From: Deinococcales bacterium
GTDB lineage: Bacteria; Deinococcota; Deinococci; Deinococcales; JAAFIG01
Assembly: GCA_031414595.1 (NCBI GenBank)
Contig: JANNVX010000056.1
Coordinates: 1 to 35,160 of the forward strand
Direction of reading: 5' to 3'
DNA: 35,160 nucleotides
A program made the translations under genes and the position numbers. The stretch's first letter is position 1, and the number at the start of each line of letters is the position of its first letter. Of the stretch, positions 1-13,245 are shown piece by piece. The notes below the pieces were generated by a model. It made no database searches. It was not told where the DNA came from and worked only from the letters and a program-made list of their open reading frames with translations.

Positions 1-143
1 GGACGTGTTGCGGAATACGAAGTGGTATTGCTCTGATTGGTTTATGGAGATTGCTTGTGGTTTGCATAACCTTCGCTGTGCTTTTCGCAAACGGGCTTTG
101 CGGAAATCGAGCTAGTTTCTTATTTCCGATAACGTCTATTAAA

Positions 144-227
144 AGGAATCGGAGGGATTTGAACCCTCGAGACATCAGTCTTTCTTCTTTAGCAAAGAAG
201 TGCAATAAACCACTCTGCCACGATTCC
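144..227 (-). tRNA. tRNA-Ser(GCT), duplicate copy without encoded CCA
   Basis: Identical to 949-1032. GGAATCG/CGATTCC acceptor, CTTCT-TTGCTAA-AGAAG anticodon arm, long variable arm; followed by TTT rather than CCA. Confidence 0.8.
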
Positions 228-229
228 AT

Positions 230-347
230 TGGCGAGTCTGACAGGATTTGAACCTGCAACAATACGTGTTGGAGACGTACTTTTTGCCCCTTAAAGCAGC
301 ACCTGACGGGCTTGGGGCGCTCCCTTAGCTAGTCGGGATTCAGACTC
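230..347 (-). pseudogene. tRNA-Trp(CCA)-like duplicate carrying a ~40-nt insertion between the D arm and anticodon arm
   Basis: Matches 1035-1112 except that 42 nt (280-321) replace 2 nt, plus one D-loop substitution. Confidence 0.7.
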
Positions 348-569
348 TTAAAATTCAAGATTTACAACACTATCAGCAGCAAAATCAGAATTCTTGACTT
401 TCTTAATCAATTCAGAAAGGCGCATCGAAACCGCCATTGAAAACACCTGATGTTCTTCGCCACTTTGTTCTCGAGCCACCGAGATTGGAACACCAGAAAC
501 AACCACCTGCACACCTTTTTTGGTGATGTAAGTGTAATCAATTCTAGTTTCGGGAGCAATCACATTCAT
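348..569 (-). CDS. Putative antitoxin, YgiT-type zinc-finger-like fold but lacking cysteines
   Basis: 73 aa ORF with GAGG RBS; VVVSGVP motif resembles YgiT-type xxIxxVP; lies directly downstream of a DUF4258-like ORF. Confidence 0.5.
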   Translation of the reverse strand: MNVIAPETRIDYTYITKKGVQVVVSGVPISVAREQSGEEHQVFSMAVSMRLSELIKKVKNSDFAADSVVNLEF

Positions 570-597
570 GTTGACCTCGAGTATACGACTAAAGCAC

Positions 598-921
598 TTA
601 AATTGTATGAACTGTAATCACAATGTAGGAATCAAAAAACGAAACCTTGACGCGAATCCAACGCTTATCGGGAATCTGATACTCGAAATTAATTCCTGCC
701 ATACGAGATAAATTATTATTTGGCAAATCTTTAGAAACTGCTTTACCAAACAAAATAGCTTCAAACAAGGCAACTGGTGCAATATCTTCATCTTGGGCTG
801 CTACAAATGCGTGAGGATGAATTTTGATTTCCTCGCGCCATAGTGCAGTATGAATAAAATCCAATTCCCACTCGAGAATATCCGAAGTTGAAAAATCGAA
901 ACCAGTGGGTAAATCAGGCAC
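598..921 (-). CDS. DUF4258-like putative RNase toxin
   Basis: 107 aa; H-P-H-A...I....L.EAI..G and C-terminal IVITVH pattern typical of DUF4258 proteins; TATACT 5 nt before the GTG start. Confidence 0.6.
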   Translation of the reverse strand: MPDLPTGFDFSTSDILEWELDFIHTALWREEIKIHPHAFVAAQDEDIAPVALFEAILFGKAVSKDLPNNNLSRMAGINFEYQIPDKRWIRVKVSFFDSYIVITVHTI

Positions 922-945
922 AAGAAAGTATACATTGAAAATTTT

Positions 946-1032
946 TGGAGGAATCGGAGGGATTTGAACCCTCGAGACATCAGTCTTTCTTCTTTAGCAA
1001 AGAAGTGCAATAAACCACTCTGCCACGATTCC
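946..1032 (-). tRNA. tRNA-Ser(GCT)
   Basis: Cloverleaf with anticodon loop TT-GCT-AA, long variable arm, GGTTCAAATCC T arm, encoded CCA. Confidence 0.9.
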
Positions 1033-1034
1033 AT

Positions 1035-1112
1035 TGGCGAGTCTGACAGGATTTGAACCTGCAACAATACGTGTTGGAGACGTAGACCCTTAGCCAGTCG
1101 GGATTCAGACTC
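1035..1112 (-). tRNA. tRNA-Trp(CCA), atypical D arm
   Basis: GAGTCTG/CAGACTC acceptor, TACGT-CTCCAAC-ACGTA anticodon arm, G73, encoded CCA; A instead of U at position 8. Confidence 0.8.
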
Positions 1113-1117
1113 AAAAG

Positions 1118-1198
1118 AGGAAAGCAAGGGAATCGAACCCTTGAAGCATAAGCCCAGCCGTTTTCAAAACGGTGTCCTCGACCCACCGGACGCTTTCC
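1118..1198 (-). tRNA. tRNA-Ser(TGA), atypical D arm, no encoded CCA
   Basis: GGAAAGC/GCTTTCC acceptor, anticodon loop TT-TGA-AA, variable arm, GGTTCGATTCC T arm. Confidence 0.75.
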
Positions 1199-1200
1199 AT

Positions 1201-1273
1201 TGGAGACCTCGCTCGGAATTGAACCGAGACTCTTTGGTTTGCAGCCAAAGCCCATGCCGTCTGGCTCGAGATC
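1201..1273 (-). tRNA. tRNA-Cys(GCA)
   Basis: TTTGG-CTGCAAA-CCAAA anticodon arm, U73, encoded CCA; weak D arm. Confidence 0.8.
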
Positions 1274-1280
1274 AAGATTT

Positions 1281-1493
1281 TGGTGGAGGAGGCGGGACTC
1301 GAACCCGCATATTCGGCACTGTCGGTTTTAGGAAACCCGCTTCCTGCGGCAAGTTACAAACCCACTCGAGATTCGTCGTCTCGAGTCGCCAGCCAGTGCA
1401 TCCGGAACCTCCGACGGTTTTTGACCTGTGCCGCAGCTATTACGCTTACCGAATCCAAGTTTTGCGGTGCGCTCCCGTTTGCGCTACTCCCCC
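1281..1493 (-). ncRNA. 213-nt tRNA(Ala)-like RNA with a large structured insertion (possible miniature tmRNA)
   Basis: GGGGGAG/CTCCTCC acceptor with G3:U70, A73 and CCA; GCGC-AAACGGGA-GCGC D arm; GCGGG-TTCGAGT-CCCGC T arm; ~160 nt between the D and T arms. Confidence 0.75.
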
Positions 1494-1504
1494 ATGTGAG
1501 ATTT

Positions 1505-1582
1505 TGGTGTTCCTTCAGGGACTCGAACCCAGACTTTTCAGTGTCTTAAGCACTGCGCCTCTACCAATTGGGCTAAAGAAAC
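1505..1582 (-). tRNA. tRNA-Leu(TAA), short variable region
   Basis: CAGTG-CTTAAGA-CACTG anticodon arm, A73, CCA. Confidence 0.85.
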
Positions 1583-1583
1583 A

Positions 1584-1659
1584 TGGTGCGTTCGGTAGGA
1601 GTCGAACCTACAGATTCTCGGGTTTGAACCGAACGAGTTTGCCATTCCTCTACAAACGC
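1584..1659 (-). tRNA. tRNA-Leu(CAA), short variable region
   Basis: TTCGG-TTCAAAC-CCGAG anticodon arm, A73, CCA. Confidence 0.85.
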
Positions 1660-1686
1660 AAATCTCGAGGATTACCCAAGAATTTT

Positions 1687-1762
1687 TGGTACGCCGAGCG
1701 GGACTCGAACCCGCAAGCTCCTCGTTCTAAGCGAGGTGAGTTTGCCATTTCTCTATCAGCGC
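1687..1762 (-). tRNA. tRNA-Leu(TAG), short variable region
   Basis: CCTCG-CTTAGAA-CGAGG anticodon arm, A73, CCA. Confidence 0.85.
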
Positions 1763-1788
1763 TTAATTCCCTCGAGACTCGAGGATTA

Positions 1789-1865
1789 TGGTGTCCATGA
1801 CGGGATTTGAACCCGTAAATTCTTGTCGCTCAAACAAGTGACTTTGCCAATTTGTCTACACGGAT
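1789..1865 (-). tRNA. tRNA-Leu(GAG), short variable region
   Basis: CTTGT-TTGAGCG-ACAAG anticodon arm, A1:C72 mismatch, A73, CCA. Confidence 0.8.
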
Positions 1866-1902
1866 ACAGTGGAAATTTGGTGCATGAACCCATATGATTC
1901 AT

Positions 1903-1978
1903 TGGTGCAGATTGGGAGAATCGAACTCCCGTTATTTGCATGGCAAGCAAGCGTCTTCAACCACTAGACGAAATCTGC
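1903..1978 (-). tRNA. tRNA-Gly(GCC)
   Basis: GCAGATT/AATCTGC acceptor, loop TT-GCC-AT, CCA; discriminator A73 (bacterial Gly usually U73). Confidence 0.85.
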
Positions 1979-1984
1979 AAAAAG

Positions 1985-2056
1985 CCTCTGCTTGTGTGGC
2001 AATTCTTTAAGCGGTGAATTGCCCTTTGCTCCCGCTCGAGCAAAGAAAAACAGAGG
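1985..2056 (-). ncRNA. Unknown three-way-junction RNA element with complementary hairpin loops
   Basis: Closing stem 1985-1990/2051-2056; 8-bp hairpins at 1998-2023 and 2024-2045; loops contain AGCGG and CCGCT. Confidence 0.5.
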
Positions 2057-2076
2057 TGAAGACCCAAAAGGGTCTG

Positions 2077-2150
2077 TGGAGCAGAAGGACAGGTTTCGCA
2101 CCTGCGTCTCGCCTCGGAAAAGGCGCATCTTGCATTTAGAAGACTTCTGC
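2077..2150 (-). tRNA. tRNA-Gly(TCC)-like, 6-nt anticodon loop, GTGC T loop
   Basis: GCAGAAG/CTTCTGC acceptor, U73, CCA; CGCCT-TTTCCG-AGGCG anticodon arm; T arm GCAGG-TGCGAAA-CCTGT. Confidence 0.65.
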
Positions 2151-2151
2151 A

Positions 2152-2227
2152 TGGAGCAGTCAGTGGGAATCGCACCCACATTCTCTGGTTGGAAGCCAGA
2201 CATCTTAAGCTATTGGACGATGACTGC
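2152..2227 (-). tRNA. tRNA-Gly(TCC), GTGC T loop
   Basis: TCTGG-CTTCCAA-CCAGA anticodon arm, T arm GTGGG-TGCGATT-CCCAC, U73, CCA. Confidence 0.85.
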
Positions 2228-2228
2228 A

Positions 2229-2306
2229 TGGAGGTTTTGACAGGAATCGAACCTGCGTTCTTTTGCTTACAAGGCAAGCGCTCGAGCCAACATGAGCTTC
2301 AAAACC
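2229..2306 (-). tRNA. tRNA-Thr(TGT)
   Basis: GGTTTTG/CAAAACC acceptor, loop CT-TGT-AA, CCA. Confidence 0.9.
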
Positions 2307-2349
2307 ATATGGCGTTGCTATTTTAGAACTATTTTAGTATCATTTATCC

Positions 2350-2754
2350 ATGAATCAGATTCTTAATATCCAATTAATTTCAGGTGATCAAATTTTATTA
2401 AGACTCGAGTATCCAACGACTATTTCTCGAGAGCTATTACTTGAGCGTATCCCGCTTCTTTTCGGAGAAGTTAAAGGAGTAAATACTATGAAAGTACCAA
2501 CTGGTGTCTCAAAATCATATATGCAACTTGCTCGTTTTCTTTTACAACAAGAAAATAATGAAATAAAAATTACTTTTTCGCAGCTTGAAAAGGAGTGGAA
2601 TCAACCGTTGCCACGTTCTGCTCGAGTGCATAGAGCTTGGTGGGGAAACACGGAAAATCCGACACATGTCCATGCGAGTTCTTGGATGCTAACTGGTTGG
2701 AAAGTAGAAACAATTGATCTCGAGAATGAGGTTGTCGAATTTATTAGGAACTAA
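2350..2754 (+). CDS. Small hypothetical protein, antisense to the tRNA array; C-terminal domain with TF..LE.....LP.SA..H..WW.N motif (DUF7662-like)
   Basis: 134 aa, AT-rich ORF; TATCAT 6 nt before ATG; an alternative start at MKVPTG has a GGAG RBS. Confidence 0.7.
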   Translation: MNQILNIQLISGDQILLRLEYPTTISRELLLERIPLLFGEVKGVNTMKVPTGVSKSYMQLARFLLQQENNEIKITFSQLEKEWNQPLPRSARVHRAWWGNTENPTHVHASSWMLTGWKVETIDLENEVVEFIRN

Positions 2755-2768
2755 AAAAGTTTTGAAAA

Positions 2769-2844
2769 TGGTGGGTTTCCTCGGGTTTGAACCGAGACCG
2801 CGCAGCTTAAAAGGCTGCTGCTCTACCAGTTGAGCTAAAAACCC
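2769..2844 (-). tRNA. tRNA-Lys(TTT)
   Basis: Canonical cloverleaf, GCAGC-CTTTTAA-GCTGC anticodon arm, CCA. Confidence 0.92.
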
Positions 2845-2870
2845 ATGTGGGACAAAATCAGTCCCATGTT

Positions 2871-2945
2871 TGGTGATCTCGAGGAGAATTGAACTCCTTC
2901 CTGTCGGGTGAAAACCGCGTATCCTGACCATTAGACGACGAGACC
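2871..2945 (-). tRNA. tRNA-Glu(TTC)
   Basis: GGTCTCG/CGAGATC acceptor, loop TT-TTC-AC, CCA; imperfect anticodon stem. Confidence 0.82.
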
Positions 2946-2948
2946 ATT

Positions 2949-3024
2949 TGGAAGGGAAACTGAGAGTCGAACTCAGATTTGACAGCTTCAAAGACTGTTG
3001 CGTTACCAATTACGCTATTTCCCT
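2949..3024 (-). tRNA. tRNA-Gln(TTG)
   Basis: ACAGT-CTTTGAA-GCTGT anticodon arm, CCA. Confidence 0.88.
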
Positions 3025-3035
3025 GTATTTCGGAA

Positions 3036-3119
3036 TCTCGAGCAAGTGATGTATCACATACAGGATTTGAACCTGCTCTCCGTGAGGATAACCAATAACT
3101 GTGATACTTCGGCTCGAGA
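3036..3119 (-). ncRNA. Candidate Y RNA (Ro60/Rsr-binding stem plus tRNA-like T arm)
   Basis: TCTCGAGC-C-GAAG...CACTT-GCTCGAGA terminal stem containing the GNCGAAG motif; inner stem GTATCACA/TGTGATAC; T arm GCAGG-TTCAAAT-CCTGT; no full anticodon arm. Confidence 0.65.
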
Positions 3120-3122
3120 AAA

Positions 3123-3422
3123 TTAAATGCTGACTGGTGCATAAATGCGAACTTCTGTTTCGAGGCGTGAGGCTAATTTTCGGCGTTCGATTTCAAGGTC
3201 AAAATTGGTTTGTAAGTTCAACCAGAAACGTTCTGAATTGCCAAAGAATCGTGCAAGTCGCAAGGCGGTTTCGGTACTAATGCCGCGTTTGCCAAGCACA
3301 ATTTCGTTAATACGACGGGCTGGCACACTGATATTTTGTGCAAGTCGGTATTGGCTAAGTCCAAGTGGCTCGAGAAATTCGTACTGTAGTATTTCGCCCG
3401 GGTGAACTGGTTCAAGTTTCAT
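3123..3422 (-). CDS. higA: HigA/VapI-family antitoxin (HTH XRE), no adjacent toxin
   Basis: HPGEIL..EFL.PLGLSQY.LA....V...RINEIV.GKR.IS..TALRL.RFFG.S..FWLNLQ signature. Confidence 0.9.
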   Translation of the reverse strand: MKLEPVHPGEILQYEFLEPLGLSQYRLAQNISVPARRINEIVLGKRGISTETALRLARFFGNSERFWLNLQTNFDLEIERRKLASRLETEVRIYAPVSI

Positions 3423-3438
3423 GCTTACCTATTGTACT

Positions 3439-3514
3439 TGGTCGAGAGACTTGGAATTGAACCAAGACTTACTGTGCTTCAGACAATCGTGCAGACCCAC
3501 TACACCATCTCTCG
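3439..3514 (-). tRNA. tRNA-Phe(GAA)
   Basis: CGAGAGA/TCTCTCG acceptor, ATTGT-CTGAAGC-ACAGT anticodon arm, CCA. Confidence 0.85.
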
Positions 3515-3516
3515 TT

Positions 3517-3589
3517 TGGGTGCGGTGGTGGGAGTTGAACCCACCAGCCGAGCTTATGAGACTCGGCGCATCACCGGACGCACACCGCA
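3517..3589 (-). tRNA. tRNA with CAT anticodon (Met, or Ile2 if lysidinylated), reduced D arm
   Basis: TGCGGTG/CACCGCA acceptor, loop CT-CAT-AA, CCA. Confidence 0.8.
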
Positions 3590-3617
3590 TTAAAGGTTGA
3601 CGCGCACACCGCATCAT

Positions 3618-3691
3618 TGGTCGAAGATGATGGAATCGAACCATCGTTGCCTGCATATCAGACAGGTGTCCTACCATTGGACGAATCTTCG
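3618..3691 (-). tRNA. tRNA-Ile(GAT)
   Basis: CCTGT-CTGATAT-GCAGG anticodon arm, CCA. Confidence 0.88.
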
Positions 3692-3748
3692 TTTCTCCTC
3701 GAGTTATTAGGAGGTAATACTCGAGGGGTGCGCTATTTTTTAGCGCTC

Positions 3749-3824
3749 TGGTCGGTGCGGTAGGGGTCGAACCTACGACTTCTGCTTTGTAAGAGCAGCA
3801 CTCATACCACTGAGTTACGCGCCG
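3749..3824 (-). tRNA. tRNA-Val(TAC)
   Basis: CTGCT-CTTACAA-AGCAG anticodon arm, CCA. Confidence 0.92.
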
Positions 3825-3856
3825 TTAATCTCGAGAACAGCAAAATTCTCGAGATA

Positions 3857-3931
3857 TGGTGGAAAAGATCGGATTTGAACCGATAACCTTCGCTGTGCAA
3901 AAGCGCTGCTCTCCCGTTGAGCTACTATCCC
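3857..3931 (-). tRNA. tRNA-Ala(TGC)
   Basis: G3:U70, loop TT-TGC-AC, A73, CCA. Confidence 0.9.
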
Positions 3932-3974
3932 ATGTGTGAACTGGTTACTATCCCATGTGGGGGTTTAACCCCTT

Positions 3975-4051
3975 TGGTCGAGCGTGCAAGAATTGAACTT
4001 GCCTAATGTCCTGTGTCCAAAACAGGAGACCCTCCTTGAGTCTGACGCTCG
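3975..4051 (-). tRNA. tRNA-Pro(TGG)
   Basis: C1:G72, A73, CCTGT-TTTGGAC-ACAGG anticodon arm, CCA. Confidence 0.85.
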
Positions 4052-4059
4052 AGAATTTA

Positions 4060-4133
4060 AGATTCGGATAGGAATTGAACCTATGACCTTTGGCTTCGCA
4101 TACCAATGCTCGTTTCCACTGAGCTACCGAATC
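4060..4133 (-). tRNA. tRNA-Arg(GCG), no encoded CCA
   Basis: GATTCGG/CCGAATC acceptor, TTGGT-ATGCGAA-GCCAA anticodon arm. Confidence 0.8.
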
Positions 4134-4141
4134 ATGATTAT

Positions 4142-4218
4142 TGGTGAACCGAGCAGGACTTGAACCTGCGGCTTCCATGTTAGAAGCATGGCACTCTGTT
4201 CCACTGAGTTATCGGTTC
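4142..4218 (-). tRNA. tRNA-Arg(TCT)
   Basis: CCATG-CTTCTAA-CATGG anticodon arm, CCA. Confidence 0.92.
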
Positions 4219-4225
4219 TTAAAGT

Positions 4226-4301
4226 TGGAGAATCGGGCAGGACTCGAACCCGCAACATCCACGTTCGACGCGTGGCGCTCTATCCTTTGAACTACCGATT
4301 C
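4226..4301 (-). tRNA. tRNA-Arg(TCG), G33
   Basis: CCACG-CGTCGAA-CGTGG anticodon arm, CCA. Confidence 0.82.
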
Positions 4302-4331
4302 AGGTACTCGTGTGAACTACCGATTCAAGTT

Positions 4332-4407
4332 TGGTAGCCGCGAACAAGTGGATTCTCGAGGGGCGTAATCATTGGAAGTGATAACCCTCGAGATTCGGCT
4401 CGCAGTT
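4332..4407 (-). ncRNA. Second candidate Y RNA
   Basis: CTGCGAGC-C-GAA...CCACTT-GTTCGCGG stem with the same motif as 3036-3119; inner stem TCTCGAGGG/CCCTCGAGA; ends in ACCA. Confidence 0.6.
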
Positions 4408-4408
4408 T

Positions 4409-4483
4409 TGGCGGTTCTAACGGGAATCGAACCCGTATTGCCTGAGAGACAGTCAAGCATCGTAGCCGTTGGAACATAGAACC
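4409..4483 (-). tRNA. tRNA-Asp(GTC)
   Basis: CTTGA-CTGTCTC-TCAGG anticodon arm, G73, CCA. Confidence 0.87.
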
Positions 4484-4511
4484 ATTTTCATGGTGTCAAA
4501 CACAGACCCTA

Positions 4512-4586
4512 TGGCTGACTCGGTAGGGATCGAACCTACGACAACCTGATTAACAGTCAGGCACTCTACCTCTGAGTCACGAGTCA
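4512..4586 (-). tRNA. tRNA-Asn(GTT)
   Basis: CCTGA-CTGTTAA-TCAGG anticodon arm, G73, CCA. Confidence 0.92.
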
Positions 4587-4591
4587 ATAAA

Positions 4592-4673
4592 TGGATACGG
4601 AAGGATTTGAACCTCCATTGTCTTTTAGACGCTTGGGCTACAACCAAGTGCAATACCGTTCTGCCACATACCC
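4592..4673 (-). tRNA. tRNA-Tyr(GTA), no encoded CCA
   Basis: CTTGG-TTGTAGC-CCAAG anticodon arm, variable arm GTCT-AAA-AGAC, A73. Confidence 0.87.
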
Positions 4674-4707
4674 ATGTGGATGACTGGTATGTCATCCGTA
4701 AAGCTCG

Positions 4708-4909
4708 AGGTGTACGCCCCAAGCGTGTATCGTCTTTAAGAATAATCGTGATTACACCGTACAGTGCAACAGCATTCACGTTTTCTAAGGGAGAAAAATT
4801 TGGCATTCGAGTTGTCAAGGAATTCACTCAGAGACGAGTTCTAGTCGTCGCAAGCAGTTTGGGTGTTGGTGCTTCTCGAGGACACGAATTCTCGAGTTGG
4901 CGTACACCT
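4708..4909 (-). ncRNA. Unknown ~200-nt multi-branched structured RNA
   Basis: Perfect 11-bp closing stem AGGTGTACGCC/GGCGTACACCT enclosing several hairpins; fills the gap between tRNA-His and tRNA-Tyr. Confidence 0.55.
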
Positions 4910-4910
4910 G

Positions 4911-4986
4911 TGGGTTCATCGTCGGGAATCGCACCCGAGTTTCTAGGGTCACAACCTAGCGTCTTGTCTATTGGACGACAACGAAC
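4911..4986 (-). tRNA. tRNA-His(GTG), first gene of the array
   Basis: G-1:C73 pair, CTAGG-TTGTGAC-CCTAG anticodon arm, GTGC-type T loop, CCA. Confidence 0.88.
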
Positions 4987-5012
4987 ACAGTTTTTGGTTT
5001 GTTGCGGGGTAC

Positions 5013-5049
5013 AAAAAATTTGAGCCTATCCATTGCGGGTAGGCTCAAA
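5013..5049 (-). terminator. Intrinsic terminator/attenuator upstream of the tRNA array
   Basis: TTTGAGCCTACCC-GCAAT-GGATAGGCTCAAA followed by TTTTTT on the minus strand. Confidence 0.75.
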
Positions 5050-5068
5050 AGAGTTTGCCTGTTCCGCC

Positions 5069-5215
5069 TTACCTGATTTGATTTTCCAAAATACTCGAGA
5101 ATCTACGACCTTGCCATGTCCCTAAACCTAAATCTGAATTATGTTTCAGATTGGCACAATCGCTTGCCCGCATCGGGCGTGGTGCGTATTGTTTTGTGGG
5201 GTGAGTAAAGTTCAT
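5069..5215 (-). CDS. Putative 48-aa leader peptide (MNFTHPTKQYAPRPMRASDCANLKHNSDLGLGTWQGRRFSSILENQIR)
   Basis: Not in the ORF track; translated by hand. GGAGA RBS before ATG; stop ~20 nt before the terminator hairpin. Confidence 0.55.
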   Translation of the reverse strand: MNFTHPTKQYAPRPMRASDCANLKHNSDLGLGTWQGRRFSSILENQIR

Positions 5216-5273
5216 ATATTTCTCCGTTTGAGGTTTCTAGTCTCGAGGGTGAGGTGTTGTTTCCTCGAGCAGC

Positions 5274-5303
5274 ATAGTACCTACTGCATTCAAGTCTTGT
5301 CAT
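5274..5303 (-). promoter_or_regulatory. Putative sigma70 promoter of the leader/tRNA array
   Basis: ATGACA-18 nt-TACTAT on the minus strand, ~60 nt upstream of the leader ATG. Confidence 0.4.
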
Positions 5304-5510
5304 GCGTAGATGTGCTTAGTGTGGTACTAAGCCATTTGACGCGTGAGGGCTGCTCCCAAAAACCAATCCACCTGTCTATTTTGACATCTCCCATGCCTAT
5401 CTTGACCTCACAGCAGCACCTGTCTTGACCACATACGCGCACCTATCGGGCGTGGTCGCTTCGGGCTTGGGTCGCTAAAAGCAGAGAATTTCGGTCTTTC
5501 TCACCGAAAC

Positions 5511-5539
5511 AAAAAGACGAAGCCTAAGCCTCGTCTTTT
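5511..5539 (-). terminator. Terminator after rplA
   Basis: AAAAGACGA...TCGTCTTTT inverted repeat with a T-tract, 18 nt past the rplA stop. Confidence 0.7.
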
Positions 5540-5556
5540 ACTATCTATTTTAAATT

Positions 5557-6246
5557 TTAGCGCAAGCCAGCCGTGGTCACTTTGACACTTGGTCCCATCG
5601 TGGTGGTCAAGTACAAACTCTTGACAAACACGCCTTTGGCTGCGCCAGGCTTGGCTGCCTCGAGTGCCACTTGAAAAGCCTTGAGGTTTTCCTCGAGCTT
5701 TGCCGCGTCAAACGATGCCTTACCAATTGGAGCGTGAACCACACCAGTCTTGTCGTTGCGGAATTCGATTTGACCGGCTTTGAGGCTTTTGACCAAATCG
5801 CCAATGTTCAAGCCAACTGTGCCGCTTTTTGGGTTTGGCAACAAACCACGAGGTCCAAGAATACGACCCAGTTTAGAACCAATGGCTGCCATCATGTCTG
5901 GGGTAGCAACCACCGCATCAAAGTCCAACCAACCATCAGCAATTTTAGCGATTAACTCGTCGCCGCCCACAAAATCTGCGCCAGCGCCTTCGGCGGCTGG
6001 AATACCATCGCCTTTGGTCAATGCCAGAACACGAACAGTGCGACCCGTACCATGTGGTAGGGCAACCGTGCCACGCACATTCTGGTCGGACTTACGTGGG
6101 TCAATACCCAAGCGGGCATGGACTTCAACGGTTTCGTCAAACTTGGCACTGGCAAGGGTTTTAACAAGGGTAGTGGCTTCGGTAGCATCGTAGTTTTTGC
6201 TCGAGTCCACTTTGGCGGTCAATAATTTATAACGCTTGCCGCTCAT
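5557..6246 (-). CDS. rplA: 50S ribosomal protein L1 (true start MSGKRY at 6246)
   Basis: [36 protein letters not shown] and TTMGP motifs; ATGA overlap with the rplK stop. Confidence 0.98.
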
Positions 6247-6677
6247 AATGGTCTCCCTTCGATGGTCACGCCCATGCTGCGGGCAGTACCTGCCACGGTT
6301 TCGGCGGCTGCCTCGACACTGGCGGCGGTTAAATCTGGCATTTTGGTCTTGGCAATCTCGAGAACTTGCGCCCATTGGAGTTTACCGACCTTATTTTTGT
6401 TTGGAGCGCCAGAACCTTTAGCAATACCCGAGGCTTTACGAATCAGGTAGCTCATCGGTGGGGTTTTATAAACAAGGGTGAAGCTGCGGTCGGCGTAAAT
6501 CGTGATTTCTACGGGGATAATCGCGTCGCCTTGGTTGGCGGTAGCCGCATTAAAATCCTTGCAGAACTGCATGATGTTTGCACCATGTTGACCGAGTGCC
6601 GGACCGACGGGCGGGGCGGGAGTCGCCTTGCCTGCTGGAAGCTGTAGCTTCACAAAACCAGTAACTTTCTTTGCCAT
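6243..6677 (-). CDS. rplK: 50S ribosomal protein L11
   Basis: [23 protein letters not shown]...FCKDFNA...GTARSMG. Confidence 0.98.
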
Positions 6678-6790: not shown

Positions 6791-7387
6791 TTAACTTCTC
6801 GAGACCTGAGCAAATTCAAGTTCGACGGGTGTTTCACGCCCAAAGATATTGACCAAGACTTTAAGTTTGCTGCGCTCTAAGTTCACTTCCGAAACCACAC
6901 CCGTAAAATCAGAGAATGGACCAGCGACCACTTTGACCTGATCGCCTTCTTTGAAACTGGCTTTGACGGCTGTTTTCTTGACTTTGACTTGTTCAATAAT
7001 GCCAACTTGCTTGAGGAGGTTATTGACTTCATCTATGGTTAATGGAAACAAATCGGTTGGACGTTGCGGGTTTTTTGTACCGACAAAACCAGTCACACCA
7101 GCCGTGCCACGCACTGTTTCCCAAGCCTCATTGAGCTTATCGGGTTCGTCTTGGTCTACCACATCCATTTGCACAAAAACATACCCCTGATAAGTCTTTT
7201 TGCGCTCGACCAGCTTTTTGCCGTCCTTGCCAACTTTGCCTGCTTCGGTGCTTTCTTCAGTCGGAATTAAGACTTGAAAAATCTTTGTACCGAACATCCC
7301 CAAAGCCCTGGCGCGTTGCTCAACATTGGTAGAGACCTTGTCTTCTTGTCCAACATAGGTATGAACCGAGTACCACTCAATTGCCAT
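6791..7387 (-). CDS. nusG: Transcription termination/antitermination factor NusG
   Basis: [12 protein letters not shown] terminus; [11 protein letters not shown]...[15 protein letters not shown]. Confidence 0.97.
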
Positions 7388-7390
7388 AAA

Positions 7391-7582
7391 TCAGCCCCCC
7401 GAGGCAAGACGGAACAAACCGTTGGTCAAGGCTGTGCGGAACAAGGTGTCCATTGCCCAGAACAAAATAGTCATAATCAACAAAAACAGCAGAACCGTCT
7501 GCGTGCCTTGCAGCACCTCTTCTCGAGTGGGCCAGGAAACGCGCTTAAGTTCCTCCCACGCTTCGCGGAAGTAATTGATCAT
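7391..7582 (-). CDS. secE: Preprotein translocase subunit SecE
   Basis: ELKRVSWPT motif plus one TM segment; synteny. Confidence 0.96.
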   Translation of the reverse strand: MINYFREAWEELKRVSWPTREEVLQGTQTVLLFLLIMTILFWAMDTLFRTALTNGLFRLASGG

Positions 7583-7584
7583 GA

Positions 7585-7752
7585 TTAGATCTTCTGTTCT
7601 TTGAAAGTAACGTGTTTACGAGCCACAGGGTCGTACTTTTTAAGCTCGAGTTTTGCCGTCGTGTTGCGACGATTTTTTTCTGAAGCATAAAAGTAACCAG
7701 TGCCAGCCGAGGACATCATTTTAATGATAATGCGTGGACCATCTTTTGCCAT
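7585..7752 (-). CDS. rpmG: 50S ribosomal protein L33, cysteine-free type
   Basis: Not in the ORF track; translates to [55 protein letters not shown] with an AAGGAG RBS. Confidence 0.97.
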
Positions 7753-8601: not shown

Positions 8602-11600
8602 ATGAACTTTGCAGCACAACCCATGCAGTGGCAACAAGGCTCGAGTTTAGAGGCTTTGGAGTTGCTGCATCAGTTGACTTTAGCGCTCAGTGCCGAAGAT
8701 AACGTGACTGAGTTGCTAACGCGGATGCTCGAGGGAACATTGCGTTTTTGTGGTGGAACTTCGGCAGCCGTTTATGTCGGTTTAGCAGATGGTCGGCTGG
8801 AGATGCGCTACGGTGTCGGTCATTTGGTGACTCAAATTGGTCAGGTTTTTGAGGCGGGTGAAGGGGCGACTGGTTGGGTTTATCAGCATCAACAAGCCAT
8901 TTTGGTCAGTGACTATCAGGCTTCTAAATTTAAGAGTCACCGTTATGCCAATATGGATCGCTCGTTGATGGCTGCGCCGTTGCGTCAAGCGGGTCGGGGG
9001 TTTGGGGTCATCACCGTGATTTGGGAAAAACAAATTGGCGCATACCAAGTTGATCATCTCGAGTTACTTGAACGCTTTGCGGCTTTTGCCAGTGTTGCCT
9101 TAGAAAATGCGACTTTACGGGCGGCTCAAGAACGCCAAAACCGAGAAACCCAAGAACGGGCGGTGCGGCGCGACGAATTACAACATCACTTAGCTGATGT
9201 GATTGTGCGCTTAGAACCTTTTGAGGCACTGCAAGAATTGTTGCAGCGTTGTGGTCAAATGCTTGATGCGGCGGGCGGTTTGGCATTTTTGCGAAGCAAT
9301 ACTTCACCTTTAGAATTACTGGTGGATCAACACCAGAATAGTCTTTTTCATACTGGCAACGAACCTTTTTTACGTCTGGCTTTGCTGGGTAAACCGGTGG
9401 TGATTAACCAGTACGCGCTTTTTGCTGAGCGCATCCAAAGCCATGCCGATGCTGGAATAAAAGCCCTGCTGGCGGTGGCTTTACAACGCGGGCAAGACCG
9501 AGCCGGACTTATTTTTTTTGAACGCCGTCATGGGCTTCCTTTCACCCAAAATGACATTGACTTGGTGTTGCAAATTGCGCCTGTGCTGGGTGGTTTACTC
9601 GAGAATGCCCGTCTATACCTCGAAGCTCGAGCCGCTAAGACCGAAGCCGAACAACGGGCTGGTTTATTAGAAGCCATTTACCGGACGTACTTAGAACTGG
9701 GACATTCAAAGGATATTCGGGCTTTAGCACATGGCTTATTGCTTCGAGTCACTTCGGTGCTTGGGGCGGATGCTGGTGGTGTCTATTTACGAAATGGCGA
9801 AATGATTGAACTGATTGCCGATTATGGTGACCAGTTTTTGCCAGAGGCTCAGTTGGGTTATGGTGTTTCTGGTACGGTTGTGGTCACAGGGCAAGGTTTA
9901 CTGCTCGAGGATTATGCGACATCGGCTTATCATCATGAAACTGACCCTGGTGTCTTATGGCATTCGGTCATGAGTGTGCCACTGAGACAACAACAGCAAG
10001 TCATCGGGGCTTTGACTTTAGTGGATACCCGTTTTGCAGGGCGTTTTCGCTCGGACGACCTTGAAGCCTTGGAGCGCTTTGCGGCGATAGCAAGTTTGGC
10101 TTTTGAGAATGTCATACTGCTTGACGCAACAAAACAGTCAGAACAACATGCCAAAGCGCAAACTCAGCAATTGCAACTCCTGCATCAAGCCAGTTTAGCG
10201 GTTTCGCGTCATGCCCCTAAGCAGGAGTGGTTACACTCGATTCTGGTGCGGGCAGCCCAACTTTTAGGGGCAAATGATGGTTCGGTGTTTATGCTGCAAG
10301 AAAACGGTCGGATTGAAACGGCGGCGCAATTACGCCACGAGGCAAGCCTTGACCATGTTATAGACAAAGACCATGGTATTTCAGGGCAAGTGATTGACAC
10401 TGGTCTACCGCTTTTGGTGCAAAATTATCAACATTGGGAAGAAAAACCAGAACCCGAATTAGAACCATATTGGCAGTCGGCACTTGGTGTGCCACTCCAT
10501 ATGGGCGGTCTGGTGATTGGCGCTTTAACCTTGGCGCACACCAGTAATCCTAAACAATTTATTGAAGAAGACCTAGAAACCTTAGAACGTTTTGCAGCGA
10601 TGGCAAATGTGGCGCTGGAAAACACCGCCCTGCTCGAGACAGCCCAAATGTCGGCGGCTCAGAGCGAGTATCAAACCCGCTTACTCGAGGCGTTGTATCA
10701 AACCAACTTAGCTTTGGCAGGACAACTAGAACCCAGTGATTTGTTACAACAATTGGTGGATCGGGTGGTGCTGTTATTCAAAGCCGATTCGGGGGCGGTC
10801 TATTTAACCCAAGGACAGTCTTTTGAACGAGTGGCTTATTTTGGTAACAGCCCGAGTGTATCGGGTACATTGGGGCAAGGATTATCAGGCACGGTCATCA
10901 GCCAACAAAAAGAACGGATTGTTGATAATTACATGACTTGGGAAGGTCGGGATGTCGGACAAGACAACGAAGTGCTTCGTTGGAAAGCCGCCATGAGCGC
11001 TCCACTTTGGCGCGGCGATCAAGTGATTGGGGCATTGACGATAGCTGACACGCGCAGCAGCCATTTATTTACGCCCACCGACCTTGAAGCCTTAACCCGC
11101 TTTGCTGCTAGTGCCAGTGCCGCCTTAGAAAATTCAAGGTTGTTTGAGAGTCAGCGCCAAGCCGAACAACAGGCGCGTCTAGCCGAACAACAGGCTCAGG
11201 AACGTTCCGCCCAAATGGAAGCCCTGCACGAAATTAACTTAGAGTTGGGGCAGTACCATGATTTGGATTTACTCTTAGAGAGTATTCTCGAGCGAGCCGT
11301 GATGCTAATTGGTGGGGCGGCTGGTCGTTTGGATTTGCGGCAGCCCGATTCGGCATTCTTACGAGAAGCCGCGATTATTGGCAGTGAACCTTCACGATCC
11401 ATCGAATTAGGTAAAGGTGCAAGTGGCTTGGTTGCTCTAAACGGCAATTCTTTATTGATTGATGATTACCAAAAATGGAAATTTCGTTCGGTCAATCTAG
11501 CCAAAGCCTGGAAATCCGTGATTAGCGTGCCGTTAAATCGCGGAAAAGAAATCATTGGCGCACTCACCATTGCCGACGAAGTTCAAACAGCCAAATTCAG

Positions 11601-13245
11601 TCAAAATGACCTAGAAACTTTAGAGCGTTTTGCAGCCAGTGCCAGTTTAGCTTTAGAACGCGCCAAATTACTAGAAGACGCTCGGACAGCCGAATCAGAG
11701 GCATTAACTCGAGCCAGACAACTCGAGGCACTGCATCAGGTCTCTTTAGAAGTCAGTAAAAACCTTGAACCCGAAGCCCTGTTATTTAGTGTGCTTGAAC
11801 GAGCCGCCACTTTACTCGGGGCAAATGCAGGGGCGGTTTTTTTAATTGAACAAGATGAACTGGTTTTGGCGGCTGGCTTGGGCAGAGTTGCTATACCACG
11901 CATTGCCCTTGGTACAGGTTTAAGTGGGCGAGTTGCCCTAAACGGCGAACCCATTTTAATTGATGATTACCAAACTTGGGATGGTGCGATTTCGTCGAGC
12001 AGTTCAACTTGGCGCAGTGTTGCCAGTGTGCCTTTGCGTCAGCATAATCGTTTGATTGGGGCATTAACCTTGGCAGACACAACCCTATCTGGGCGCTTTA
12101 AGATTCATGACCTTGAAACCTTAGAACGCTTTGCTTCGCTGGCGGGTATTGCCCTCGAGAATGCACGGCTCTACATTCGTGAACGCAATAACTTACGCGA
12201 TGAAAAAATACGTGCCAGAATTACCCAAGAAGTAGCCCGTTTAAGAAGTGTTTCTGATTTGGTTAGGGCTGTTCTTGGGGTTCTCGAGGAGACACTGGGG
12301 TATCAGTACATCACACTGTACTTGTTAGATGGGCAAGTGCTGCGTTTACAAGGTCAGATTGGTGACACGACCCCGCATTTTGAAATGTCAATTCAAGAAG
12401 GTGTAACCGGACGGGTGGTACGCAATGGTCTTGCCGAATTGGTTTTGGATGGTCGAACCGACCCCGACTTTATTTTAGACTCACCAGACCGCACCTCAAT
12501 GATTTGTGTTCCTTTGCGTGGTTCACAGCATATTCTTGGTACATTAAACATCGAGTCAAGTTACCTACACCCCTTTAGTCAAACCGACCTCGAGATGCTT
12601 GATACCTTAAGTGTATCCATTACCACCGCCTTAGAAAACGCTTTGCTGCATGAACAAATTGAACGAAAGGCGAGTGAAATGGAATTCTTGCGCTTCCAAG
12701 CCGAACGCGCCGCTCGATTTGATACCCTAACCAATCTACGCAATCGCCGTGCCTTTGATGAGGACTTACAACGCACCTTAGAGCGCCAAGGCAACCTAGG
12801 TTTTAGCTTGGCGGCGGTTGATTTAACTGGTTTTAAGTTGGTCAATGATCGTTTTGGACATGCGGCTGGTGACCAAGCCTTGGCTCGAGTTGCCAAGGTC
12901 TTATCGAGCGCCCCAATACATCGAGGCAGGGCGCTGCATAAAACCTACCGCACGGGCGGTGACGAATTTATTCTAATCATTCCGCATGAGCAACCGCCAC
13001 TTGAACTCTTAATGCACATCACAAGGGGGGTCGAAAATTTAGATTTTCAAGATGGTTTACAAATTGGCTTAAATGTTGGTCTAGCCAATTATCCCCACGA
13101 AGCCAAAGACTTAGACCAATTGCAATCCTTAGCCGATAACCGCATGTACAAAGCCAAAACTGCTGGTAAGCCGTTCTTGATCGAAGATGAACTCGAAGCA
13201 CCGCCAATTCCACGCCGCCGTGCTTCTGATAAAAGCAATCAATAA
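8602..13245 (+). CDS. Diguanylate cyclase with eight tandem GAF domains
   Basis: Eight repeats ending in LERFAA.A..ALEN-like helices; DTLTNLRNRR, FKLVNDRFGHAAGD and YRTGGDEF. Confidence 0.92.
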   Translation: MNFAAQPMQWQQGSSLEALELLHQLTLALSAEDNVTELLTRMLEGTLRFCGGTSAAVYVGLADGRLEMRYGVGHLVTQIGQVFEAGEGATGWVYQHQQAILVSDYQASKFKSHRYANMDRSLMAAPLRQAGRGFGVITVIWEKQIGAYQVDHLELLERFAAFASVALENATLRAAQERQNRETQERAVRRDELQHHLADVIVRLEPFEALQELLQRCGQMLDAAGGLAFLRSNTSPLELLVDQHQNSLFHTGNEPFLRLALLGKPVVINQYALFAERIQSHADAGIKALLAVALQRGQDRAGLIFFERRHGLPFTQNDIDLVLQIAPVLGGLLENARLYLEARAAKTEAEQRAGLLEAIYRTYLELGHSKDIRALAHGLLLRVTSVLGADAGGVYLRNGEMIELIADYGDQFLPEAQLGYGVSGTVVVTGQGLLLEDYATSAYHHETDPGVLWHSVMSVPLRQQQQVIGALTLVDTRFAGRFRSDDLEALERFAAIASLAFENVILLDATKQSEQHAKAQTQQLQLLHQASLAVSRHAPKQEWLHSILVRAAQLLGANDGSVFMLQENGRIETAAQLRHEASLDHVIDKDHGISGQVIDTGLPLLVQNYQHWEEKPEPELEPYWQSALGVPLHMGGLVIGALTLAHTSNPKQFIEEDLETLERFAAMANVALENTALLETAQMSAAQSEYQTRLLEALYQTNLALAGQLEPSDLLQQLVDRVVLLFKADSGAVYLTQGQSFERVAYFGNSPSVSGTLGQGLSGTVISQQKERIVDNYMTWEGRDVGQDNEVLRWKAAMSAPLWRGDQVIGALTIADTRSSHLFTPTDLEALTRFAASASAALENSRLFESQRQAEQQARLAEQQAQERSAQMEALHEINLELGQYHDLDLLLESILERAVMLIGGAAGRLDLRQPDSAFLREAAIIGSEPSRSIELGKGASGLVALNGNSLLIDDYQKWKFRSVNLAKAWKSVISVPLNRGKEIIGALTIADEVQTAKFSQNDLETLERFAASASLALERAKLLEDARTAESEALTRARQLEALHQVSLEVSKNLEPEALLFSVLERAATLLGANAGAVFLIEQDELVLAAGLGRVAIPRIALGTGLSGRVALNGEPILIDDYQTWDGAISSSSSTWRSVASVPLRQHNRLIGALTLADTTLSGRFKIHDLETLERFASLAGIALENARLYIRERNNLRDEKIRARITQEVARLRSVSDLVRAVLGVLEETLGYQYITLYLLDGQVLRLQGQIGDTTPHFEMSIQEGVTGRVVRNGLAELVLDGRTDPDFILDSPDRTSMICVPLRGSQHILGTLNIESSYLHPFSQTDLEMLDTLSVSITTALENALLHEQIERKASEMEFLRFQAERAARFDTLTNLRNRRAFDEDLQRTLERQGNLGFSLAAVDLTGFKLVNDRFGHAAGDQALARVAKVLSSAPIHRGRALHKTYRTGGDEFILIIPHEQPPLELLMHITRGVENLDFQDGLQIGLNVGLANYPHEAKDLDQLQSLADNRMYKAKTAGKPFLIEDELEAPPIPRRRASDKSNQ

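Follow-up and report, generated by a model that had tools for sequence, protein, structure and literature searches.

Known systems and the new locus

Two kinds of bacterial locus come closest to the one described here. The first is the long tRNA array; a tRNA array unit has been defined as a group of 20 or more tRNA genes with no fewer than 2 per kb (Tran et al. 2016, PMC4758250). According to the main text of Santamaria-Gomez et al. (2021, PMC8421152), the L-array of Anabaena PCC 7120 is controlled by 9-nt promoter repeats and a role under translational stress has been proposed for such arrays, while the survey in the same source lists Deinococcus-Thermus among the phyla with short accreted arrays only. 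The second is the rsr (Ro60) locus of Deinococcus radiodurans, where Yrn2, tRNA-Asp and Yrn1, which lie upstream of rsr, are reported to come from a single precursor (Chen et al. 2014, PMC4201824). Here we analyse positions 144-5335 of a 35,160-base stretch of DNA (the window, which is an entire contig of a draft genome of 4.49 Mb in 120 contigs, 94% complete) from an uncultured family of the Deinococcales. At this place tRNA genes for all amino acids are interleaved with RNAs that resemble Y RNAs, with a 213-nt tRNA-shaped RNA (element X) and with small protein genes, all behind a leader open reading frame (ORF) and a terminator.

The observation on which the work is based, made in an earlier note from the letters of the DNA, is confirmed as a whole. 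The reading preferred here, that the region is a long accessory operon of tRNA genes, of the L-array type and switched by stress, is moderately probable when taken with all its parts. The likeness to the Anabaena array is upheld as far as the main text of PMC8421152 describes the latter: both hold at least 20 co-oriented supernumerary tRNAs, aberrant or pseudo-tRNAs and embedded protein genes, and an HNH endonuclease gene, found near cyanobacterial L-arrays, also lies near the related array of Calidithermus chliarophilus. In contrast to the promoter repeats of Anabaena (PMC8421152), the Deinococcales array carries a leader ORF and a terminator. The earlier note had also presented the co-occurrence of such arrays with Ro60 as known, which does not hold for this source: the terms 'TROVE', 'Ro60', 'Rsr' and 'Y RNA' have no occurrence in the main text of PMC8421152, and element X is not mentioned there. 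In the literature searched, no paper joins tRNA arrays with Ro60 or Y RNA.

The array as a second tRNA set

ARAGORN finds 27 tRNA genes within 144-4674, every one on the minus strand, and a search with Rfam contributes His(GUG) at 4914-4985 (47 bits) as well as a weak match at 233-303 (32 bits). In all, there are 28 tRNA genes on the minus strand of 144-4985; they have 27 different anticodons and cover every one of the 20 amino acids, as had been claimed. The earlier count of 28 genes plus a duplicated Ser/Trp pair needs correction, since the 28 already include both copies of Ser(GCU); the extra gene is one disrupted Trp copy. At about 5.8 genes per kb (28 genes in 4.84 kb), the array lies within the size and density limits that PMC4758250 gives for a tRNA array unit. 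The genes are co-oriented and as close as in an operon, and the widest gaps are filled by conserved RNAs or inserted genes. Each of the five non-tRNA spacers singled out in the earlier note holds a conserved element, and the four small ORFs listed there are present (348-569, 598-921, 2350-2754 on the plus strand, and 3123-3422). The tRNA genes and tRNA-like pieces are, in the direction of transcription:

4911-4985, minus strand: tRNA-His(GUG), found by Rfam (47 bits) and relaxed ARAGORN, with an encoded G-1 opposite C73
4675-4910, minus strand: His-Tyr spacer, 78-87% identity in 5 loci, genus-conserved
4591-4674, 4512-4586 and 4409-4483, minus strand: tRNA-Tyr(GUA), tRNA-Asn(GUU) and tRNA-Asp(GUC) (ARAGORN, Rfam)
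3439-4301, minus strand: tRNA-Arg(UCG), Arg(UCU), Arg(GCG), Pro(UGG), Ala(UGC), Val(UAC), Ile(GAU), Met(CAU) and Phe(GAA) (ARAGORN, Rfam)
2769-3024, minus strand: tRNA-Gln(UUG), Glu(UUC) and Lys(UUU) (ARAGORN, Rfam)
2152-2306, minus strand: tRNA-Thr(UGU) and Gly(UCC) (ARAGORN, Rfam)
2077-2151, minus strand: tRNA-like RNA of the Gly type; anticodon stem of 4 bp, loop of 6 or 8 nt, U73 and CCA
1505-1978, minus strand: tRNA-Gly(GCC) and four tRNA-Leu (GAG, UAG, CAA, UAA) (ARAGORN, Rfam)
946-1273, minus strand: tRNA-Cys(GCA), Ser(UGA), Trp(CCA) and Ser(GCU) (ARAGORN, Rfam)
228-347, minus strand: second Trp copy, interrupted by a dispersed repeat of 42 nt; its flanks align with Trp, and Rfam gives 32 bits over 233-303
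144-227, minus strand: second tRNA-Ser(GCU) copy, CCA not encoded (ARAGORN, Rfam)

This set is supernumerary. Outside the array the genome carries 41 dispersed tRNAs and a normal tmRNA (on contig C29), so that the separate housekeeping set which the earlier note had asked for does exist, and 24 of the 27 array anticodons recur among the genes outside. The two sets are distant from each other: array tRNAs share 57-74% identity (mean 65%) with their closest housekeeping counterparts for the amino acid concerned, and their GC content is 51%, against 58% in the housekeeping set. Three anticodons, Arg UCG, Arg GCG and Leu UAA, are found only in the array in this 94%-complete assembly. For Leu(UAA), a housekeeping-type gene occurs outside the array in three of the four relatives searched, and its absence here is therefore probably an assembly gap. 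By our reading of the sequences, the initiator tRNA is not among the array genes: the sole CAU tRNA is elongator-like, because its acceptor stem is fully paired and its anticodon stem lacks the run of three G-C pairs.

Several array members depart from the usual tRNA form. The four Leu tRNAs measure 76-78 nt and have no long variable arm, whereas the housekeeping Leu tRNAs measure 82-87 nt; short-bodied Leu tRNAs also occur in the Calidithermus array. The Gly-type tRNA-like RNA was missed by both ARAGORN and Rfam; it shows 80-91% identity in seven loci, compensated changes in its anticodon stem and a fold z-score of -2.5. This RNA, together with Gly(UCC) at 2152-2227 and His at 4911-4985, has a T loop of UGCGAUU or UGCGAAA, with G at the position expected to be U55, and in Gly(UCC) and His the GG of the D loop is missing as well. 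These oddities suggest a co-varied, non-standard elbow. The His-Tyr spacer has no Rfam match and folds with a z-score of -2.7 in its 3' half and -0.4 in its 5' half. Elsewhere in the genome, at 41112-41273 of contig C32, an 89-nt tRNA with a Leu-type body (long variable arm, A73) carries a GAA (Phe) anticodon and directly abuts an odd tRNA-Thr(UGU).

Leader, putative promoter and terminator

The 5' end of the array consists of a promoter region, a short leader ORF and an intrinsic terminator, which precede the gene for tRNA-His:

5274-5335, minus strand: array promoter region (putative), an inverted repeat GCTTAGT..ACTAAGC followed by ATGACA-N18-TACTAT
5069-5215, minus strand: leader ORF of 48 codons with a GGAG Shine-Dalgarno sequence, open in all six genus loci
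5008-5049, minus strand: leader terminator, an attenuator candidate, -16.7 kcal/mol, z-score -4.9, followed by U6; genus-conserved

A promoter scan gives a match at 5303..5274 (9 of 12 positions), the only promoter-like site upstream of the array, and the region is kept in 6/6 genus loci and recognisable in other genera. The inverted repeat that lies immediately upstream of the -35 box is conserved too and may bind a regulator.

The earlier note had placed the array behind a leader ORF and a terminator. This architecture stands, with another ORF than the one then named. ORF 5139-5303, which starts within the -35 box of ATGACA-N18-TACTAT, was rejected, as it is broken in two of the six genus relatives and frame-shifted in others. 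The conserved ORF is 5069-5215, in which all insertions and deletions among the genus loci are multiples of three. Comparable ORFs of 48-72 codons occur in six further loci from four other genera, with dissimilar peptides, and the ORF is open in all 12 related loci that include the 5' end; searches of the window ORF against Pfam, NCBIfam and PADLOC gave no match. The terminator begins 20 nt past the ORF stop and ends about 25 nt upstream of tRNA-His, and the distance from stop to stem is held at 20-25 nt across genera. A short translatable ORF with a ribosome-binding site is thus kept open, with an intrinsic terminator before the genes, which are the features expected of an attenuator, and the retention of this architecture without retention of the peptide is the signature that a translation-coupled one would leave.

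The same features bear on a simpler explanation, according to which the array is an ordinary constitutive tRNA operon that raises gene dosage and the leader ORF is an unrelated small gene with its own terminator. CCA is encoded in 24 of the 28 array tRNAs, as in the housekeeping ones, and in this genome the array directly follows the ribosomal protein operon, both of which would fit such an operon. However, the 25 nt or so between the leader terminator and tRNA-His leave no room for a second promoter, the leader peptide varies between genera while the ORF and its spacing persist, adjacency to rplA is found in just one relative, and the array tRNAs are lower in GC and have aberrant features. 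A constitutive operon is accordingly held to be improbable.

Y RNAs and the Ro60 gene

Two of the spacers hold RNAs that we read as Y RNAs on the basis of a descriptor, their folds and covariation, and to this extent the 'surveillance RNAs' of the earlier note are borne out:

3037-3118, minus strand: YrlA-like Y RNA of 82 nt, with a CUCGAG/CUCGAG stem, a GCCGAAG motif and, inside, a tRNA-like module bearing a T arm
4339-4404, minus strand: small Y RNA-like gene of 66 nt, with a UGCGAG/UUCGCG stem around CCGAA ... GGUUAUC ... CACUUG; descriptor match

The Rsr-recognition motif is given as GNCGAAN0-1G by Chen et al. (2014, PMC4201824). In the 82-nt RNA the sequence GCCGAAG at positions 6-12 agrees with this motif in full, whereas in the 66-nt RNA the motif GCCGAAUC agrees with GNCGAA and not with the final N0-1G, since UC follows. 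The 82-nt RNA folds at -27.2 kcal/mol (z-score -3.45), is 82-98% identical in seven loci and shows compensated changes in its inner stem; a T arm and an acceptor-like stem are present, and the D arm is reduced to a GG-containing loop. It resembles YrlA (RF02553, known from Salmonella and M. smegmatis) in its 5' GNCGAAN0-1G motif, its terminal stem and its tRNA-like module with a T arm, and differs from YrlA in the reduced D arm and the location within a tRNA array. The 66-nt RNA is a plain hairpin, as is YrlB, and folds at -25 kcal/mol (z-score -4.6).

A loose regular expression proved uninformative for finding Y RNAs genome-wide and was replaced by a stem-aware descriptor. In 16 related loci this descriptor gives 26 hits in 67.5 kb of array strand versus 5 in the remaining 294 kb. 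When 14 of the RNAs so found are aligned, 8 of 14 pairs show compensated changes, and CCGAA, GGUUAUC and CACUUG vary little or not at all. The terminal stems of most array Y RNAs are made up of CTCGAG. A CGAA motif that matches the array Y RNAs is also reported in the Y-like RNAs of phage phiLo (PMC12135203). In the search described by Chen et al. (2014, PMC4201824), candidates overlapping tandem tRNA genes were discarded.

The Ro60 neighbour proposed in the earlier note was found in relatives and not in the assembly itself, which supports that interpretation in part. In seven sister genomes (G001, G003, G006, G007, G008, G009 and G013), rsr, with TROVE and vWA_Ro60 domains, lies directly downstream of the last tRNA on the same strand. 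The placement of a Y RNA within 4 kb of a Ro60 ortholog is likewise seen in sister genomes (about 3.3 kb in G003) and not here, where the contig ends 143 nt past the last tRNA, inside a repeat that is present at 19 other contig ends. Further tRNA-shaped RNAs occur in the relatives between the array and rsr, close upstream of the latter (L011 7615-7843, L012 5212-5340, L013 6330-6459, L014 3405-3631, L026 8665-8733). They have an acceptor stem with G3:U70 and CCA, D and T arms and an AAAAC-loop hairpin, and their insert holds a circularly permuted Ro motif, CCUUG-stem-loop-CCGAAG.

As a whole, the unit looks like a greatly expanded version of the D. radiodurans rsr locus as described in PMC4201824. 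The order is the same, Y RNAs stand beside tRNA upstream of rsr, and the Ro-binding stem is of the CGAA type. In contrast to that locus, there are 28 tRNAs instead of one, the Y RNAs are scattered among them, the assembly studied here is without rsr, and the sister genomes add the tRNA-shaped Y-like RNAs with the permuted motif.

Element X

The best-conserved piece of the array, with 76-99.6% identity across genera, is a tRNA-shaped RNA:

1281-1493, minus strand: element X, a tRNA-shaped RNA of 213 nt

Its 7-bp acceptor stem comes with G3:U70, A73 and CCA, and its D and T arms are true ones. A short AAAAC-loop hairpin takes the place of the anticodon arm, and an insert of about 125 nt forms several helices. 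Element X matches no family of Rfam 15 when searched at E up to 10, and in the literature searched its core strings appear in no paper.

One known RNA to which it comes close is tmRNA, with which element X shares the tRNA-Ala-like acceptor (G3:U70, A73, CCA), the T arm and a large domain that replaces the anticodon arm. It differs in keeping a true D arm and in having no conserved reading frame or stop codon. Identification as tmRNA was rejected, as the tag frame is broken by 1- and 2-nt insertions and deletions in relatives and RF00023 gives 18-21 bits against a cut-off of 47. An intron-containing tRNA was rejected as well: there is no 3' strand for an anticodon stem, and the candidate strand is instead part of a long-range helix that covaries. 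A length of 137 nt also falls short of a group I intron. Resemblances to a riboswitch, a signal recognition particle RNA or a ribozyme were by eye only, with no Rfam support at E up to 10.

Among genomes, a pattern scan found element X in the tRNA array of C. chliarophilus DSM 9957, while 4 of the 14 matches, in metagenome-assembled genomes of delta- and gammaproteobacteria, cyanobacteria and Coriobacteriaceae, were discarded as chance occurrences in coding DNA. A covariance model built on the insert detected a single stand-alone copy, followed by a terminator and lacking an array, in each of 12 of the 77 sampled genomes of a related genus. Of these stand-alone copies (L044-L055), some lie beside purF or a gene for a PEP-utilising enzyme, with variable genes on the opposite side, as at tRNA integration sites. 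The neighbours of these copies vary and point to no protein partner.

A two-part core pattern extends the distribution to 93 metagenome contigs and 7 viral contigs, the latter 21 to 380 kb long (five above 100 kb) and bearing tRNA arrays and tmRNA alongside; a BLAST search with the X-like core against 50,697 phage records gave no match. Among the matches listed, the core lies nearly always in a tRNA-shaped RNA and mostly within tRNA arrays, and some of the core loci adjoin genes for tmRNA, RNase P RNA or GOLLD. Adjacency to tmRNA is found in 4 of the 16 loci scanned (L062, L120, L157 and L160). On metagenome contigs with tRNA arrays that bear X-like RNAs, a class A RNase P RNA gene (L085 2257-2622) and a GOLLD RNA (L128 141-615) were observed beside the array. 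In the literature searched, no paper joins tRNA arrays with tmRNA, GOLLD and tRNA-like motifs.

At E up to 0.01 the covariance model found a match in 58 of the 90 sources, and these matches represent 43 distinct sequences. Among the latter, pairing holds in 91.7% of cells, compensatory change is seen in 36 of 43 pairs, and the covariation score is 0.349 as against at most 0.059 for controls with slid partners, although the 58-match alignment was fitted to the model and therefore leans towards its structure; covariation was also seen on 22 element X matches. The acceptor identity, including G3:U70, is not kept in distant members. For this reason, the tRNA frame most likely serves processing or stability only, and the insert would be the working part.

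Conservation, inserted genes and origin

In BLAST searches of the array DNA against 40 relatives, strong matches at the level of the array are confined to one family (f1), with weak, tRNA-sized matches elsewhere. The array occurs throughout this family and in C. chliarophilus, with flanks that vary between genomes; for L-arrays, a patchy distribution indicative of horizontal transfer is described in PMC8421152. Apart from some losses and insertions, a single gene order is shared by the 15 array-bearing loci that were read in 14 relatives, across six genera: His, Tyr, Asn, Asp, Arg x3, Pro, Ala, Val, Ile, Met, Phe, Gln, Glu, Lys, Thr, Gly x2, Leu x4, X, Cys, Ser, Trp, Ser. An order kept across six genera indicates long vertical residence. 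The array of C. chliarophilus DSM 9957 (Thermaceae; L042 7764-11444), the one carrier in culture that turned up, has 19 tRNA-array genes including element X, a tRNA-Met with a 102-nt insert and class-I Leu tRNAs; its HNH endonuclease gene lies at 7203-7724, and it is without a leader ORF of the kind described above.

The protein genes within the array are a different matter. The earlier note had counted toxin-antitoxin genes within its candidate translation-rescue system; they turn out to be variable insertions across the array loci and not core parts:

3123-3422, minus strand: orphan HigA-family antitoxin (TIGR02607, 108 bits, cut-off 47.7; HTH_3 domain)
2350-2754, plus strand: DUF7662 gene (Pfam PF24698, E 1.5e-11)
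598-921 and 348-569, minus strand: two-gene module of a 107-aa DUF4258-like protein and a 73-aa partner

The HigA gene was found in the window and in one relative only. No HigB lies beside it: it is separated from tRNA-Phe by 16 nt and there is no toxin ORF, so that the gene does not form a HigBA module. The DUF7662 gene has no tblastn match in any related array locus and is an insertion specific to this genome. The two-gene module has no Pfam hit; for the 107-aa ORF, an Atlas score of 0.91 to DUF4258 clusters is no more than a lead. With tblastn that ORF is matched at seven more places in the genome, at four of which the 73-aa ORF has a match alongside; in other arrays the module is placed differently. 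The pair is likely toxin-antitoxin cargo.

Repeats have entered the locus as well. Copies of the dispersed repeat of about 42 nt lie at 280-321, inside the second Trp copy, and at about 5399-5478, between the rplA terminator and the array promoter; others are scattered across genomes of the same family. The far end of the window is a repeat of another kind:

1-143, no strand assigned: terminal part of a repeat with many copies; 19 further sites of the genome, all at contig ends, are 99-100% identical to it

This is probably the end of a multicopy insertion sequence, which hides what follows the array.

Such insertions could be signs of a decaying relic without present function, as could the Trp copy broken by a repeat, the duplication of Ser and Trp, and the loss of some members from the arrays of genus g5. 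Decay is, however, very improbable in view of the compensated changes in the tRNA-like stems, the Y RNAs and element X, of the identity of element X across genera, which exceeds that of its surroundings, and of the leader ORF being open in 12/12 loci.

The array also has counterparts in large phages, among whose genes are tRNA arrays, tmRNA, Ro60 and Y RNAs. The locus might be a domesticated phage module with a main job in defence or counter-defence, in which spare tRNAs and tRNA-shaped decoys would withstand or absorb anticodon nucleases and toxin RNases, either the cell's own or those of invaders. We judge this origin and role unlikely, and the idea is compatible with the stress-switched operon preferred here and does not exclude it. 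In the seven viral contigs the X-like RNAs have tRNA arrays and tmRNA as neighbours, the tRNAs of the array studied here are strongly divergent, toxin-antitoxin modules land repeatedly in the array and both of its flanks vary between genomes, all of which would suit a phage module. To this may be added Ro60 or Y-like RNAs reported in mycobacteriophages, CcrColossus, Bacillus phage G and Thermus phage phiLo (PMC12135203), and the HNH endonuclease of the Calidithermus array, as in cyanobacterial L-arrays (PMC8421152). Against this, no integrase, phage structural or replication gene adjoins the array in any locus examined, in agreement with the earlier note, which had seen no integrase and had named a prophage continuing to the left as a refuting case; the relatives give no sign of one there. 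BLAST of the array against phage and plasmid records gave single-tRNA matches only, each covering at most 3% of it, and the shared gene order speaks for vertical descent. The host motif CTCGAG, the commonest hexamer of the genome (23,235 copies, 5.18 per kb), occurs 34 times in 1-5303 (6.4 per kb), so that its density in the array, which the earlier note had called high, equals that of the host.

Upstream of the array, the minus strand carries nusG (6791-7387), rplK (6243-6677) and rplA (5557-6375), the latter two assigned by Pfam, and their terminator:

5498-5545, minus strand: rplK-rplA intrinsic terminator, fold -18.4 kcal/mol, z-score -3.9, followed by a U run

The array lies just downstream of this terminator, as had been described, and this adjacency to rplA is common to just one relative; in the others both flanks differ. 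Farther away, 8602-13245 encodes a protein of 1547 aa with about eight GAF domains and a C-terminal GGDEF domain.

A model of the array and its weighing

In the proposed mechanism, the leader terminator would normally stop transcripts of the array, as a ribosome that reaches the leader stop would cover the spacer of 20-25 nt. When ribosomes lag or stall, owing to loss of tRNA, antibiotics or starvation, the spacer could pair with the 5' half of the terminator, and transcription would read through. The precursor would then be cut by RNase P and 3'-end enzymes into spare tRNAs, Y RNAs and element X. The spare tRNAs would refill a damaged or depleted pool, while the Y RNAs might arm Rsr for RNA clearance, in the manner of the Rsr-Y RNA-PNPase complex of D. 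radiodurans. In element X, the conserved insert would act within a tRNA frame that provides only processing and stability. A function under translational stress is what we infer from the architecture and from one studied L-array, which is regulated differently.

Several points weigh against this reading. Many of the array tRNAs have odd features, namely an A1-C72 mismatch, G55 for U55, class-I Leu bodies and C73 in Met. The control of the Anabaena array by promoter repeats means that the analogy fails to extend to regulation. The candidate antiterminator, formed by the spacer and the 5' half of the terminator, is weak: 3-4 bp are invariant and none covaries, and because the pairing shows no covariation, the antiterminator is a step that we infer. 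With regard to the Y RNAs, the Rfam model for YrlA (RF02553) hits neither Y-like RNA at E up to 1. Finally, rsr does not adjoin the array in G010, G014 and G015, and the assembly studied here gave no TROVE hit and no tRNA-shaped Y RNA, so that the link to Rsr is drawn from the relatives.

A wider proposal, which is tentative and clearly less probable than the stress-switched operon itself, joins two ideas. Arrays, Y RNAs and Ro60 might form one surveillance unit, gauged by translation through a leader-ORF attenuator, in Deinococcales, other phyla and giant phages; and element X might be the founding member, as seen here, of a widespread and undescribed class of tRNA-framed RNAs, whose core GGUUGCGGAUGCAC ... 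GGGAAGCGCGUUUCC would be catalytic or would dock a protein and act on damaged tRNAs or on their nucleases.

Long tRNA arrays have been puzzling for more than a decade, with one functional study, carried out in a cyanobacterium. The joining of such an array to the Ro60/Y RNA system, behind what appears to be a gauge of ribosome speed, offers a testable model of when and why a cell may switch on a second tRNA set. Element X has a strongly covarying domain with an invariant core and is present on some hundred contigs of environmental or viral origin, which makes it well suited to structural and biochemical work, and the cultured C. chliarophilus DSM 9957 opens a route to experiments on both the array tRNAs and X.

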